In this document: one piece after another, positions 46,587 through 62,904 of the stretch
Layout of the letters: every line of letters starts with the position of its first letter
How positions within the stretch are numbered: position 1 is the first letter of the stretch
DNA from: Nitrosopumilus sp.
GTDB taxonomy: Archaea; Thermoproteota; Nitrososphaeria; Nitrososphaerales; Nitrosopumilaceae
DNA length: 64,000 nt
NCBI GenBank assembly: GCA_965207445.1
Contig: CBDBLX010000002.1
Span: 224,001-288,000, forward strand
Direction: 5' to 3'
Made by a program: the position numbers and the translations under genes
The notes under the pieces: generated by a model
Seen by the model: only the letters and a program-made list of their open reading frames with translations
Databases searched by the model: none
What the model was told of the DNA's origin: nothing

Positions 46587-47273
46587 TCAATCCCAACTTG
46601 TCGCGTCAAGTTCTATTACTGATCTCTTGATCCGACTGGCAACTTTTCTGTGTAGGTTGTTGAATTCCCGGTAATTTTTAAGGTTCTTTTGACGTGCAAG
46701 GTGTTCGTATTCACCATACTGGTCCAGAATTTCAACAGATATTCTGTTGTATACACTGAATTTCTGTGGATAGAGGGCGGCGGCAAGGCCGGAAATGAAG
46801 GCGGGGCCAAATGTCCTGCATGTGACATCTTTTTCTTCAAACATCTCTAGTTTGCTGTAAAGTTGGGCATCGTTGTAGTTTTTATGATTATAGAGTGCCT
46901 CAACCACATCCAAGAATGTGCTGCGCGCCTGCTCGCCATATTCCTTCACAATGGTTCGACTCAAAGATTTGTATCGGCCATGTTTTGAGAGGGTCATTAT
47001 GTTGTTCCTTAGGGGTTCTTCCAAGTGTAGTTCAACCAACACCTTCCCTAATGTTACTTTTTCGCCAGTCACATAATCAAATATGTTAAGATATGCACGT
47101 ATCATGGAGCGGAACTGTTGTCCGTCTCTTTCCAATTCATCACTGTTCTCCATAACATACCTGTCAGTAAACAGACGGATAACTTTGTTTGATCGTTTGA
47201 TTTCTTCAAGGCGATCGGGGTCTGTGTGGCCTTGTTTGTAGTCCTTACAAAGAGCGTCAAAGTCGGACGTCAT
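46587..47273 (-). CDS. Hypothetical protein, possibly restriction-associated
   Basis: FISGLAAALYPQKFSVYN...ELD pattern resembles domains in McrB-associated proteins. Confidence 0.55.
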   Translation of the reverse strand: MTSDFDALCKDYKQGHTDPDRLEEIKRSNKVIRLFTDRYVMENSDELERDGQQFRSMIRAYLNIFDYVTGEKVTLGKVLVELHLEEPLRNNIMTLSKHGRYKSLSRTIVKEYGEQARSTFLDVVEALYNHKNYNDAQLYSKLEMFEEKDVTCRTFGPAFISGLAAALYPQKFSVYNRISVEILDQYGEYEHLARQKNLKNYREFNNLHRKVASRIKRSVIELDATSWD

Positions 47274-52940: not shown

Positions 52941-53019
52941 GTAACCGTTTAATCCTCGTGCCCGCGCCAAACGTTTCGATAAATCTATGCCTAAATTTGG
53001 CAAGAGGTTGAACGGTTAC
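52941..53019. mobile_element. MITE family A, copy 6
   Basis: GTAACCGTTTAATCC...GCCTAAATTTGG...GGTTGAACGGTTAC. Confidence 0.85.
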
Positions 53020-53289
53020 GATTGTTTTACACAGGTTCTCTTGCAAAATCGGTGTTTATATACTTTTTATCTGAATTTGGTATTTGATAACGTTTTTATA
53101 CTTTTTTGTATGACTATGACGATAGTTTGAATAAGGATAGTTAGAGGTATCAAAAAGACAAACGAGAGTGGTTCATCTTGAAGATTGATTGTCACCGTGA
53201 CATACAGATGTAGAGTGTTTGTGTATATGATGTGTAATGTACAGAGTCTGGCTCAGGCAGAGGCGTATGGAAATGAACGTTATCCAAGC

Positions 53290-54230
53290 ATCACAACTAT
53301 CTGCAAGATCAGAGTCTTTTACTGGTATAATGTCAATTCCAATTGCCTTGGCAGGCGTCATGTTGTTTTTGAGGCTTGTGTGTTTTCTAAAAAAGTTATG
53401 ATATACTATGCAGACGTAAGAGTCCGGGGTCCTCTGATTTTAGTCCACGTACACACTTGAGTCTATCCTCAAATTCTCCATTGAGTCGTTCGTAGACGTT
53501 ATTTTGATTAAAAAGATTCTGTATGTGTATCTCACGTATGTGTACAAACACCGATCCCGCCCGCCTAAAGAATACTTTTCTGGCAGGCTTTATGAACTCC
53601 TGCAGTCCGTCACTTACAAGTATTGGTAGCCTACGCGTACGGGCAGCAGCCATTTGAAACAGGTTAGTGGGATCAGATCCCTTTTTCTTCTTGAGGATCT
53701 CGTTAAAACAAATCGGCTTGCGCCATCCATTACACCAAACAAATATCTGGTCAGTTTACGTATTTTAAATTCTAGGTCGACATGCCACTGAAACCATGCA
53801 TCAAGACACAACAAACTTACCGTAGCATGATTCGCGAATATCATCAGTCCACCTATGTATTGTAGATGGGTTTATGATGATCTCATCCATTGCAAGCTGC
53901 GCACATACTTCTTCTGAGACATTTTAGTTGCCATCATGGACAACGCTTTTGCTATTAATGCATCAAAATGCCGCCCCTTGAACCCTTCCATTCCAGAGAA
54001 TGTACGGCCACATTTTTTGCACATGTATCGCCTCACAGATCTTTTTCTCTTACACTTGCGCTCTCCCCATCCTTCTTTGGATTGCATTTTGGATACTGAC
54101 ATCTCAATTTTTTGCGCCTAATCTGTATCCTTTTTCTACGCCCACACCACCACTTTGTCTAAGATCTTGTATACCCCCACCACATGCTTGCATATCTTTT
54201 TTCCATTTTGATTGGCCTCACACTGACATC
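53290..54230 (-). pseudogene. IS6/IS240-like DDE transposase, multiply frameshifted
   Basis: Fragments in different frames: RYMCKKCGRTF, YLFGVMDGASRFVL, LVSDGL, NNVYERLNG, TPA..IGI. Confidence 0.85.
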
Positions 54231-54695
54231 TCATTCCAAGTGAACTAAGCGACACCACATACAATAGACCTTGCACAGTTTGCGATGCGACTGATCGAGC
54301 TCAGTGTAGTTATGGCACTGCAATGCATGCAATCTGAATGCCTGCTTTCTTAATTGCATCAATCTGACTGGAGCGTCTGCTTGCAGGCTTTGGGTTGTCA
54401 TTTTCCAATGTTTTTGATCGTTTCGCCTACCGCCTTTTCTTCCTGAACGTTTCATTATACATAATCGATATATAAGCATGCGCAATCCGATGCCTAACAT
54501 GTACTGGAACAACAAACATGCAATGGGCTGCCAATGGTTCCAAGTATCCATAACCCACAACGTACTAGTTACTCGTACATGGTCCTTGCCAAACTTTAAC
54601 CCAGAGGGTTTGAAGTTTATCATACGTGGCGACAAAATACTAGTTACGTGTCCGGATTGACTTGCCACCAACCGCGTTTTACACACTAACTTTTT

Positions 54696-56381
54696 ATGTC
54701 AAGCTGGCGTGAAATCCACAACATGATTCCAGTGGTCATAAAAAAAGGGCACATCCGAAAAGCCATGCAGAGAATAACCATTGATGGGTTTCCAACTCGA
54801 CGCAAGAGCAGAGATTACTGTCTTGTAGCAGACGGTAGGTGCTTTCCGCCGAAATACACGATCGCGTTGGCCCATGAGATCGCCACAGGAGATTTTCTGG
54901 ACTCGGAAGAATTCTCCGGAGGTGACGAGTCTGAGCGCTTTCTTAAGGGTCACGGATTTGACGTAATCGAATGTAAATGTGGGGGGTACCATCGAGATGC
55001 CAGTTCTGCATCTATGGCACAGCAGGACTCGACGCGGCAGGATGTTGGCCCAGACGGCGATCGTAGCAGACGCGCCTCAGACAGTTCCGGTGCAACCATT
55101 CGTCACACGTCCGGTCGGACGGAATCAACCCTGCGCGTGGCACTGGTGTTCCCATCGCTGGATTCGGACTGCAGCTGGCTTCCTGACGCAGACGCATTTG
55201 CCTGCGAGAAGATGGACTTTGTGCTCTTTCCAGAGGGATACGTTGATTCGTCTGATAAGGAGACACTCGAGAAACTGAAGAGACTTGCGTCTAAATTGGA
55301 CGCGCCATTGCTGGTGGGAGCAGGTGACGATGAGCAGACTCTTCTTCGTTTTAATCCAGACGGTTCCGAACCATTTCTTTTGTACACAAAACACTCCACC
55401 GCCGGTGTGATTGCATTTGAGAAGGACGACTGGAATCCACGTGACTGCCTGAGCACGTTTGAGTTGGGTGGCGTAAAGGCCGGGGCGACAATCTGCCATG
55501 ATCATTATCTGGGGATGCTCCAGCGCTATCTGTACAAGAACGGCGGCGCGCGTCTGTGGCTGAACCCGAGCGGTACCAATGTGCTTGATGCCAAGTGGGC
55601 ATCACTCCTGCGGCTGAGGGCGGTGGAGAATCGACTCTTTGCTCTCTGCACGCTCCACGATGACCAGGAAGCACGGACGTATACTCACCCCTTTGCGTTT
55701 TCGCCTGATGGCAACGAACTTTGTGCCCGGAGGGCCGGTTCCGCAGACAGTCAGCCGATCTCGGACTGTACGGAGGCCGATGTCGTCTATATCGTCGATC
55801 TCGACACCGCCTCTGCTGGCAAGTCGATCGACTGGTCGAACCTTCCGTGCGCCAGCAAGGCGCAGAGGCAGAATAAGAACCCCCAAAAGCCCGTTCGCGT
55901 ATCGCTGAAGAATGGACAGCCGATGGTGTGTGTAGCAGGGGGACGCTGGCATAATAGCGCAGATGACTGCTGCATTCAGACGGAGCATGGCGGGGTATAC
56001 GTGGGCGTGATACGCGGCAAGCGCATTCTGGATGCCGCCGCACGCTTTTGTGTGATTGACCGTGCGTATGATATGAACTGCCGCCCGATCATCTGGAACC
56101 ACTGGAATCATCGTCTCCCGACAGACTCGGATCGCCTAGCAAACCTCATGATGGGAATGGCAATCGAGTGCTGTGCGCCGATAATAGTTTCAGACAAAGA
56201 CAGGATTCACGAACTGGTGGAGTTGTCTAACAGTAACAAGATTCCAGTCCGGAGAATTGTTAAACGGTCCGAACCCGCTGTGGTCGATGTCGGACGTGCG
56301 TGGGGCCTACCTAGCGCACTCAAGATGGCCACCGAAAATACACCGGAGGCATATAAGCGGTATCGGAGTCTGGCCAAGTGA
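54696..56381 (+). CDS. Fusion of a type IV restriction-like N-terminal domain with a carbon-nitrogen hydrolase (nitrilase) domain
   Basis: YCLVADGRCFPPKY...FSGG...FL..HGF head; triad motifs LFPEGY, YTKH, TICHD; GC-rich. Confidence 0.8.
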   Translation: MSSWREIHNMIPVVIKKGHIRKAMQRITIDGFPTRRKSRDYCLVADGRCFPPKYTIALAHEIATGDFLDSEEFSGGDESERFLKGHGFDVIECKCGGYHRDASSASMAQQDSTRQDVGPDGDRSRRASDSSGATIRHTSGRTESTLRVALVFPSLDSDCSWLPDADAFACEKMDFVLFPEGYVDSSDKETLEKLKRLASKLDAPLLVGAGDDEQTLLRFNPDGSEPFLLYTKHSTAGVIAFEKDDWNPRDCLSTFELGGVKAGATICHDHYLGMLQRYLYKNGGARLWLNPSGTNVLDAKWASLLRLRAVENRLFALCTLHDDQEARTYTHPFAFSPDGNELCARRAGSADSQPISDCTEADVVYIVDLDTASAGKSIDWSNLPCASKAQRQNKNPQKPVRVSLKNGQPMVCVAGGRWHNSADDCCIQTEHGGVYVGVIRGKRILDAAARFCVIDRAYDMNCRPIIWNHWNHRLPTDSDRLANLMMGMAIECCAPIIVSDKDRIHELVELSNSNKIPVRRIVKRSEPAVVDVGRAWGLPSALKMATENTPEAYKRYRSLAK

Positions 56382-60192: not shown

Positions 60193-61872
60193 TTAACCCG
60201 ATTTGCACCTATCCCACTCTTCACATACCCATTTGAAGATTTTTTCGCCGCGTTTAATCACTGATTTTTGGTTCCATTTAGATAGGTGAGGTATTATATC
60301 ATTTGCCATTTTAAAACCAGTTCCGTAATATTCGTCTCTTTTTTCTTGTGGCTTTTTCTTTCCTAATTTACTATTTTTTCCGGGGGACAACAAAAACAAG
60401 TTTCCAGGCCAATGAACGTATAATTTTTCGGAGCTTCGAGGCAAAATGTGCTCGATAGTTTCCGTCGCGCCTTTTTCTAGAATAAGATTCAAGTTTTTGC
60501 TGTCAAATACATTTCCAGCTTTGTTTGTCAAATATTCTTCATATTTATAAAGTAAATAATGGATCTGTGGTATATCCCACTCATCTTTTACACTTTCCTT
60601 GATCATTTCATATACGTCGTGACCTTCGTAGCCTTCGTCATGAAACTGACGCGCAATAGTTCTCAATCTACTTTCAATCTCTTGTGCAGATATTTTTTTA
60701 TTAACGATGTCACAAGCTAGCTCCAAAAATTCTTTTAAAAAGTTCTTAGATTGAGGGTACCAACAAACTCTAAACATGATAAATCCAATTTTTAAGCACA
60801 GATCACACAAGTCATGTTTTTTATCGTCTGAAAGGTCATCTTGTAGTTTTATGGCGACAAGCACATATTTTGTAGGTTGTTCTGGGCATGCTGCAGAGTC
60901 AGGTTTGTCATTTTCTATTTCATAAAGCGCCTTGGCGACTGCCTCAAGACGGCCCACGGTTTCAAGAATTGCTTTTGCCCCACCTCCCTTAGATTCGCAT
61001 AGTAGGAATTCCCGGGCTTTTTCTTCCGAAAGAGGCCTCTTAGCATTCTGATACAAAGTTGCCGTAAACTTTAGTATGTCAGATTCTAAATCTGATGTCC
61101 CAATACTGCGATAAATGCCAGACCAACGATTGTGCACTTCATTTATTGTGCGTCTGTCTTTATTCTTAAATAACATCTGCATGAGATTGGTTTTTAACAA
61201 GTCAAACTTTGAAACTGCTCGTCCTCTATTGTTCAGTCCTTCAAACACGTAATATGTCAAAGCTTCATCTTGCAATTCTTGATAAACAAAAAAAACTCTG
61301 TTGTTGATGTGATTGACAAGATCGGGTAGTGATTTTCGGTTGCTTTTGTATTCTCTTACAAAGTTCTCACATTCCCTTATTGCGTTTATCAAATTTTTTT
61401 CTGCAGATGTTTCGGGTGGATCTGTTGCTTTGTATTTTCCATGCCGAATATAATCGGAAAAGTGGTTTTCAGTATCATGGTTGGTTTGTAATAATGTGGT
61501 GGCATCATTTGTCATTATTAACATTCTTTCAAGGTCGGCCTTCATCTCCTTTTCATCTGGATTGTTCTCGTCAAGTTCGTTGATGATTGCTCGATAAAGA
61601 ATAATCAGAGTTGTAATTCGCTGTTGACCATCTACAATATCTACTACCTGGTATTCTTTAGCCCTTATTGTCGTTGTCTTGGTTTTTAATACCACAATCG
61701 TTGACATCAAGTGTTCTCGATTCTCATCCATGCTGTTTTTGATGTCATTAAAGAGATCAATTCGTTGCTTTGTCTCCCAACGATAAGCTCGTTGATAGTC
61801 AGGAACCTCGTACAGGCGCCCGCTGAACAGCTTGTCAAGACTCAACAGATCAGACTTTATTGCCATGTTCAC
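60193..61872 (-). CDS. DUF262 + DUF1524 (GmrSD-like) modification-dependent nuclease
   Basis: VPDYQRAYRW, VDGQQRITT, FEGLNNRG; HNH region IEHILP...GNL...NS. Confidence 0.9.
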   Translation of the reverse strand: MNMAIKSDLLSLDKLFSGRLYEVPDYQRAYRWETKQRIDLFNDIKNSMDENREHLMSTIVVLKTKTTTIRAKEYQVVDIVDGQQRITTLIILYRAIINELDENNPDEKEMKADLERMLIMTNDATTLLQTNHDTENHFSDYIRHGKYKATDPPETSAEKNLINAIRECENFVREYKSNRKSLPDLVNHINNRVFFVYQELQDEALTYYVFEGLNNRGRAVSKFDLLKTNLMQMLFKNKDRRTINEVHNRWSGIYRSIGTSDLESDILKFTATLYQNAKRPLSEEKAREFLLCESKGGGAKAILETVGRLEAVAKALYEIENDKPDSAACPEQPTKYVLVAIKLQDDLSDDKKHDLCDLCLKIGFIMFRVCWYPQSKNFLKEFLELACDIVNKKISAQEIESRLRTIARQFHDEGYEGHDVYEMIKESVKDEWDIPQIHYLLYKYEEYLTNKAGNVFDSKNLNLILEKGATETIEHILPRSSEKLYVHWPGNLFLLSPGKNSKLGKKKPQEKRDEYYGTGFKMANDIIPHLSKWNQKSVIKRGEKIFKWVCEEWDRCKSG

Positions 61873-62358: not shown

Positions 62359-62904
62359 TCACTGTATGTTGTTGACAAGATTCAGTTGCCTCAACAAGTC
62401 AAAACCTTTTTTCATGTTGTTTTTAGAAATTTCCCAACCAAATGTATCACCCAGTGCAACAAGTTCACTTTCTGAATATTTTGTAATTTCCTGCGATTTT
62501 TGCATATAATGTAATTTGGCAGCAAAGGACATAGAGTCTGGATCTAGGTTACAATGTTGCTTGCATGTTTTGACTAGCGATTTTACACTTTTAAAAATTA
62601 TAGCAAACTCTAATGTAGTCTTTTTAACAATTTCCTCACCCTTGGGAGCTATTTTGTATGTGTAGCCTGATTTTACTCTATCTTCACTCAGAATACCATA
62701 GAACACCATACGTCCTAGAGAATTTGCTACACTTTTGTTAAATGGGCCATAAAAATATGCGAAATATGGTTCTGATAATTTTATTTCTGAAATTTTGATT
62801 GTTTCAAAGTAGATTAATTTTTGCAGGACCGTTCTGCCTGTGATCTCGCCATTGTTTGCAGATAATGTTAGACATATGGCATCAAAAGCATCAAGGTGAT
62901 TCAA
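62359..62904 (-). CDS. YwgA/DUF4065 (Panacea)-like protein
   Basis: ITGRTVLQKLIYF...YFYGPF motif. Confidence 0.75.
   Translation of the reverse strand: MNHLDAFDAICLTLSANNGEITGRTVLQKLIYFETIKISEIKLSEPYFAYFYGPFNKSVANSLGRMVFYGILSEDRVKSGYTYKIAPKGEEIVKKTTLEFAIIFKSVKSLVKTCKQHCNLDPDSMSFAAKLHYMQKSQEITKYSESELVALGDTFGWEISKNNMKKGFDLLRQLNLVNNIQ

Follow-up and report, generated by a model that had tools for sequence, protein, structure and literature searches.

The window, that is, the whole analysed stretch of 64,000 nucleotides from Nitrosopumilus sp. (contig CBDBLX010000002.1), carries on its forward strand a gene for a 561-aa protein composed of a ScoMcrA_N head, a nitrilase-superfamily domain and a truncated second nitrilase-fold domain. 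The gene, its domains and the elements that flank it are located at the following window positions:

53034..54675, minus strand: degraded insertion sequence (IS), presumably IS6-like by its end sequence, with 7 other near-full copies in the genome and a 10-base target duplication
54691..54698, plus strand: TTTTTATG box, a possible archaeal TATA box
54696..56381, plus strand: head + nitrilase + half-nitrilase gene, 561 aa from the first ATG; likely start at 54723, giving 552 aa
54723..54986, plus strand: ScoMcrA_N head (PF26345), residues 10-97, by Pfam and fold match
54987..55127, plus strand: disordered linker, residues 98-144, the site of a ~200-aa Vsr/AbaSI-like nuclease in long relatives
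55128..55850, plus strand: nitrilase-superfamily domain, residues 145-385, with E180 (55233), K232 (55389) and C267 (55494)
55878..56378, plus strand: second nitrilase-fold domain, truncated and non-catalytic, residues 395-561, with an RAxE helix (here MAIE) and a basic K515/R519/R520 loop
56420..56540, no strand assigned: dispersed genome-wide repeat (repeat C of the initial annotation) with ~60-100 BLAST matches, not gene-specific

The gene is present in the genome as a single copy. Translation probably starts at ATG 54723 (MIP...), which is shared by most homologues, and the TTTTTATG box, located approx. 25-32 bases 5' of this codon and conserved at three nuclease-less loci, is a possible archaeal TATA box. 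As had been noted earlier, the gene is far more GC-rich than its host (54.6% vs 39.6% for the genome); an equally high GC content is found in 15 of 859 long frames. Moreover, the gene is absent from all 250 other sampled genomes of the host family (Nitrosopumilaceae), which, together with its GC content, points to horizontal acquisition. The closest named relative lies in a Nitrosopumilus genome, and this, like the tetraether lipid synthase gene mentioned below, fits a Nitrosopumilaceae-like archaeal host.

The setting originally described for the gene, between a dead transposase and a repeat and close to DnaQ-like and GmrSD-type genes, is borne out: the degraded IS lies upstream, the repeat downstream, and both genes are nearby. 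At locus L001, which encodes the other archaeal short form, the neighbours scanned include neither a DnaQ-like nor a GmrSD gene. The IS was considered as a carrier of the gene and rejected because contigs in all four sequencing runs of one sample join position 53023 to 54676; as these contigs run across the site, the IS is a later, polymorphic insertion. The flanking repeats were likewise rejected as cassette ends, since they are dispersed throughout the genome and belong to different families. The window holds several further elements. A miniature inverted-repeat element of approx. 80 bases (52941-53021) has perfect GTAACCGTTCAAC-type ends and 129 BLAST matches in the genome, often with 9-base flanking duplications. 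The GmrSD-type gene (60193-61872) matches PADLOC HEC-06 at 1e-53 and is flanked by two different dispersed repeats, and 1.4 kb downstream of the 561-aa gene there is a gene for a tetraether lipid synthase. A 181-aa protein (62359-62904) gives weak matches to LmuC and DarG models and is a possible antitoxin or defence accessory protein. A 228-aa frame (46587-47273), for which no Pfam, PADLOC or NCBIfam match was obtained, has a C-terminal motif that we take to resemble domains of restriction-associated proteins.

The head was proposed in the initial annotation to be a DNA-binding domain of the ScoMcrA/McrB type, and the ScoMcrA part of this assignment stands. In the predicted structure, the head superimposes on residues 5-100 of ScoMcrA (PDB 5ZMM) with a Z score of 8.0 and an rmsd of 2.8 over 70 residues; a sequence-profile search of PDB with the head gave no match, and the link to ScoMcrA thus comes from Pfam and fold. 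The McrB part was not recovered, as domain and fold searches found no McrB-type AAA+ GTPase domain in the protein. The accessible part of the ScoMcrA structure paper describes the N-terminal domain as small and flexibly attached and assigns it no function (PMC6224610); the label "DNA-binding" is an unproven guess and is not retained here. ScoMcrA is a type IV restriction endonuclease; the 561-aa protein shares its head but has a nitrilase instead of the sulfur-binding, SRA and HNH domains, whereas the long relatives possess a nuclease that is Vsr-like rather than HNH. In particular, neither a modification reader (SBD or SRA) nor a nuclease was found in the 561-aa protein, whose ordered parts all have head or nitrilase folds. 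Among distant family members, the head recurs on some (e.g., P0225 and P0248) and is missing from most.

The head is followed by a linker whose predicted structure has a pLDDT below 50 at residues 101-142, and then by the nitrilase domain, which matches CN_hydrolase (E 1e-7), adopts the nitrilase alpha-beta-beta-alpha fold (Z ~19 to nitrilase-family amidases) and contains the Glu-Lys-Cys triad. The CN-hydrolase with an intact triad that had been read from the sequence is confirmed by conservation: none of the residues E180, K232 and C267 varies in the 32 short forms or the 35 genome-derived cores compared, and 50-52 of 52 distant relatives keep them. E242 is a possible fourth catalytic residue. 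The domain is acidic, with 23 K/R vs 37 D/E. Among solved structures, metabolite-repair amidases such as Nit1 and Nit2 come closest to it; fold and triad are shared with these and related branch amidases (NitFhit, mouse Nit2, S. aureus 3P8K). However, identity to the Nit1/Nit2-type amidases is only ~20%, the 561-aa protein has a Cys-His-Asp motif and an extra half domain, and its family is distributed in a mobile manner without a metabolic operon. Models of named metabolic amidases (deaminated-glutathione amidase, Lnt, NAD synthetase, AguB) score at best 20 bits, against NCBIfam cut-offs of 133 and 500.

The C-terminal domain lacks the triad and aligns to the second half of the first nitrilase domain. 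The degenerate internal repeat suggested earlier is not significant in a shallow profile of 35 sequences (score 16.8, inside the shuffle range); with a 52-sequence profile it becomes clear (probability 89%, score 42.6 vs a best of 12.7 in 40 column shuffles), and the fold of the isolated domain agrees. When folded alone, the C-terminal domain reaches a pLDDT of 91.7, and nitrilase-family chains account for all 21 matches at Z ≥5. The RAxE helix forms the dimer face of nitrilases; because this helix is retained, the half domain may be a built-in partner for the nitrilase domain. R488, nearly invariant across the family, is replaced by Met in the 561-aa protein, hinting at relaxed constraint.

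The initial annotation raised the concern that the fusion might be unique to this assembly. A chance fusion or mis-assembly was rejected: 387 homologues were found among 7998 candidates, and public contigs cover the gene. The usual form of the protein is longer, at ~760 aa, with a Vsr/AbaSI-like nuclease between head and nitrilase; among the best 120 of the 387 homologues, the ~200-residue insert is present in 86 and absent in 34. The insert is likely a Vsr-type nuclease, as it carries invariant motifs (D..EFDE.QHF and DEQRAWYD) and, at E 0.004, aligns with the catalytic core of the modification-dependent enzyme AbaSI; matches to DUF7255 are weak. Differences from the AbaSI/PvuRts1I endonucleases are that an SRA reader was not detected and that the 561-aa protein is devoid of any nuclease. 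No longer fusion, of 801-2285 aa, scored, which is weak evidence. Among viral contigs, phage records and plasmids, no family member was found, the one weak match being an ordinary nitrilase, and a viral fold library yielded one ordinary CN-hydrolase and nothing else.

Genome-derived homologues were collected at 57 loci from many bacterial phyla and two archaea; many of the lineage names presumably denote marine sponge symbionts. Thirty-two loci contain intact four-domain genes, and the nuclease is encoded in the gene or an adjacent frame at 48 of 57. There are two intact short forms, 13 split genes, some of which may be assembly errors, and three fragments. When 34 genomes were searched for a Vsr-like nuclease, it was present in 30 and missing in four nuclease-less ones; it was not found elsewhere in the genome that carries the 561-aa gene. 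In three genomes (G284, with two extra copies, G270 and G276), the Vsr-like nuclease is additionally encoded apart from the nitrilase, in stand-alone frames or in frames separated from it. In a quick-search, unrooted tree of 89 rows, in which the long forms of the best 120 were subsampled to ~45%, the 561-aa protein falls into a 17-member nuclease-less clade (SH-aLRT 100), and the nuclease-less state needs at least four changes. Since nuclease-bearing forms are placed both beside and outside this clade, the absence is read here as a probable loss. Relative to the other archaeal short form, dN/dS is 0.33 overall, with 0.22 for the head, 0.30 for the nitrilase and 0.45 for the half domain; judged by sequence comparison, the nuclease-less clade is under purifying selection. 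The initial annotation missed that the protein derives from a nuclease-nitrilase family, in which nitrilase plus half-nitrilase is constant, and is itself without the nuclease.

The family extends well beyond these close relatives. When 1.84 billion representatives were searched with a profile, 658 matched, 192 of them below 1e-10, and many distant members, including named Bacillota, have only 410-460 residues and consist of the nitrilase and half domain alone. At 20 distant metagenome loci, ten genes are directly preceded, often with touching stop and start codons, by a ~350-residue duplicated protein (six of these upstream proteins built the profile, and four are independent), five have a fused or adjacent Vsr-like nuclease, four lie at a contig edge, and one has neither; a nuclease-like partner is thus present at 15 of 16 informative loci. 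In Bacillus wiedmannii (P0305), the tandem partner is fused to the nitrilase. It carries D..ExE..K-type motifs in both halves and is predicted to be a nuclease, with structure matches to Mrr-type nucleases that remain under the naming bar. A third partner, HSDR_N_2, is fused C-terminally in two proteins, P0239 and P0321. The family core, nitrilase plus half-nitrilase, is therefore fixed; the ScoMcrA head is optional, and three unrelated nuclease-like partners are exchanged across bacteria and archaea. The ~350-aa tandem partner (L066:4113-5162, L062:5949-6998, L063:2486-3430 and the N-terminus of P0305) is unannotated: it consists of two restriction-fold-like halves (internal repeat probability 98%), is translationally coupled to the nitrilase, and matches no Pfam, PADLOC or curated NCBIfam family. 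Directly upstream of one partner-nitrilase operon, two dynamin-like GTPase genes lie on the same strand (L062:1918-5902).

A defence-type setting had been suggested from the neighbouring genes, and a controlled comparison upholds it. Up to three frames per side were scanned at 43 of the 57 loci (243 frames; the 14 dropped loci were repeated contexts or fragments), and six frames were taken, as controls, in each of 40 arbitrary stretches drawn from 30 of the same genomes (236 frames). Defence or toxin-antitoxin neighbours were found at 22 of 43 loci vs 7 of 40 controls (p 0.002), with classes assigned by hand rather than blind and with related genomes that are not independent. Counting only strict defence domains, the numbers are 19 of 43 vs 4 of 40 (p 0.0006), and for mobile-element genes 13 of 43 vs 5 of 40 (p 0.06). 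The defence neighbours include DruA, ThsB, type I and ISP restriction enzymes, Mrr, SIR2, Schlafen and AbiEii; at 11 of 43 loci, Pfam identified neither defence nor mobile-element neighbours. Beside the close family, no conserved neighbour gene or operon was found, only lineage-specific synteny, nor was there a conserved metabolic or repair operon. A link to 7-deazaguanine modifications, which had been offered as a possible substrate, finds no support in the scanned neighbours, as neither Dpd nor Que genes occur among the 243 + 59 frames. In PADLOC-DB 2.0, P0001, P0039, P0094 and 11 of 12 distant members have no match; the remaining distant member, P0321, matches through its HsdR-N part only.

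According to the accessible part of the literature, DRT1 is the only characterised defence nitrilase; it acts by abortive infection, and its substrate is still an open question (PMC13275509). DRT1 and DRT11 are class 3 UG reverse transcriptase-nitrilases, and they share with the 561-aa family an intact-triad nitrilase in a defence setting. The family differs from them in having no reverse transcriptase or PADLOC match, in its nuclease partners and in its built-in half-nitrilase. In particular, no fused or adjacent reverse transcriptase was found, the sole one among the scanned neighbours being that of a group II intron at L037. Among the PDB sequence and fold matches of the protein, DRT1 did not come up.

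A defence role of some kind is considered probable. Tentatively, the protein is viewed as a defence amidase that is coupled to cleavage and acts on foreign DNA or its nucleotides, at an amide or acyl group, with the short form using other nucleases of the host. In modification-dependent restriction, the specificity module stays while the cutter is exchanged; a DNA-acting amidase is favoured here because the amidase and its half partner remain constant while the nucleases swap, as specificity modules do. Amide-linked phage DNA modifications do exist, as stated in the accessible part of PMC12783734. The steps that we infer beyond architecture, selection and context would be as follows. An amide or acyl group that chemically disguises viral DNA or its nucleotides would be hydrolysed by the nitrilase, after which nucleases could cut. 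The half-nitrilase would replace the dimer partner and yield a one-site enzyme that needs no oligomer switch, which would be suitable if the substrate is not present in uninfected cells. Loading on DNA may be aided by the head and by the half domain's basic loop and, for the nuclease-less form, cutting would fall to the host's other restriction enzymes. Several features count against this reading: the catalytic domain is acidic, R488 is Met, this copy has no nuclease either in the gene or elsewhere in the genome, and the head has no assigned function and is missing from most distant members. Further points against it are that DRT1 works by abortive infection and that the tandem partner is identified as a nuclease by motifs and by structure matches under the naming bar. 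The more specific proposal of an "unmasking" amidase, which would strip viral DNA of its amide or acyl disguises before interchangeable nucleases take over, is rather doubtful.

The acidic catalytic domain would suit, instead, an abortive-infection effector like DRT1, the main rival, whose amidase would on infection deplete an essential amide-bearing metabolite or generate a toxin, with the nuclease as an optional second effector. The defence setting fits such an effector equally well, persistence without a nuclease is expected of an autonomous effector, and, in the accessible parts of the corresponding papers, DRT1 and DRT11 need the nitrilase for abortive defence (PMC13275509, PMC13436386). 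However, this explanation is unlikely: neither the gene nor its surroundings contain a conserved sensor or a reverse transcriptase, an enzyme that drains a metabolite has no need of near-obligate coupling to three different nucleases, and with its half partner built in, the protein would lack the oligomer switch that DRT1 uses. Kinship with Nit1 and Nit2 and the 11 of 43 loci without defence or mobile-element neighbours would be more readily expected of a DNA-repair or detoxifying enzyme that is not anti-viral and clears adducts of the amide or nitrile type, or natural products, with the Vsr-like nuclease serving repair; Vsr-fold nucleases do work in repair. Against such an enzyme, no conserved metabolic or repair operon is found; moreover, defence neighbourhoods are enriched, the partners include restriction-type HsdR-N domains, and all NCBIfam amidase cut-offs are missed widely. 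This reading is improbable.

The short form might also be a slowly decaying or regulatory remnant (e.g., an orphan antidote) without defence activity of its own, given that the nuclease is gone and is not supplied in trans, that R488 is Met and dN/dS of the C-terminal domain is 0.45, and that many relatives are broken (13 of 57 loci split, three fragmentary). Decay is at odds with the intact triad, with the lower dN/dS of the catalytic domain and head, with the conserved TATA-like box upstream, and with a nuclease-less state that requires at least four tree changes and forms a deep 17-member clade; a remnant is therefore given as little credence as a repair enzyme. The preferred reading remains a defence amidase coupled to cleavage.

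Literature searches found no paper on the nitrilase plus half-nitrilase family, which may still be present in a candidate table of some supplement. New from the window are a nuclease-less form under selection, a controlled neighbourhood test, and the finding that nuclease partners are exchanged throughout a wide family. In the accessible parts of the papers found, defence nitrilases always occur with reverse transcriptases and their substrate is open (PMC13275509). The present family provides a small test case for defence nitrilases without a reverse transcriptase, and natural controls are provided by members that have or lack the nuclease, that have or lack the head, or that carry one of three different nucleases. 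If the metabolite drain were true, the family could reveal the target of defence nitrilases. If amide removal from DNA were true, it would represent a new counter to phage DNA hypermodification as well as a base-mapping tool. Unmasking, if true, would be a new class of defence and would mean a nitrilase-fold enzyme acting on DNA, for which no precedent was found in the literature; through the archaeal form that lacks the nuclease, modified viruses would again become sensitive to the ordinary restriction enzymes of its host.
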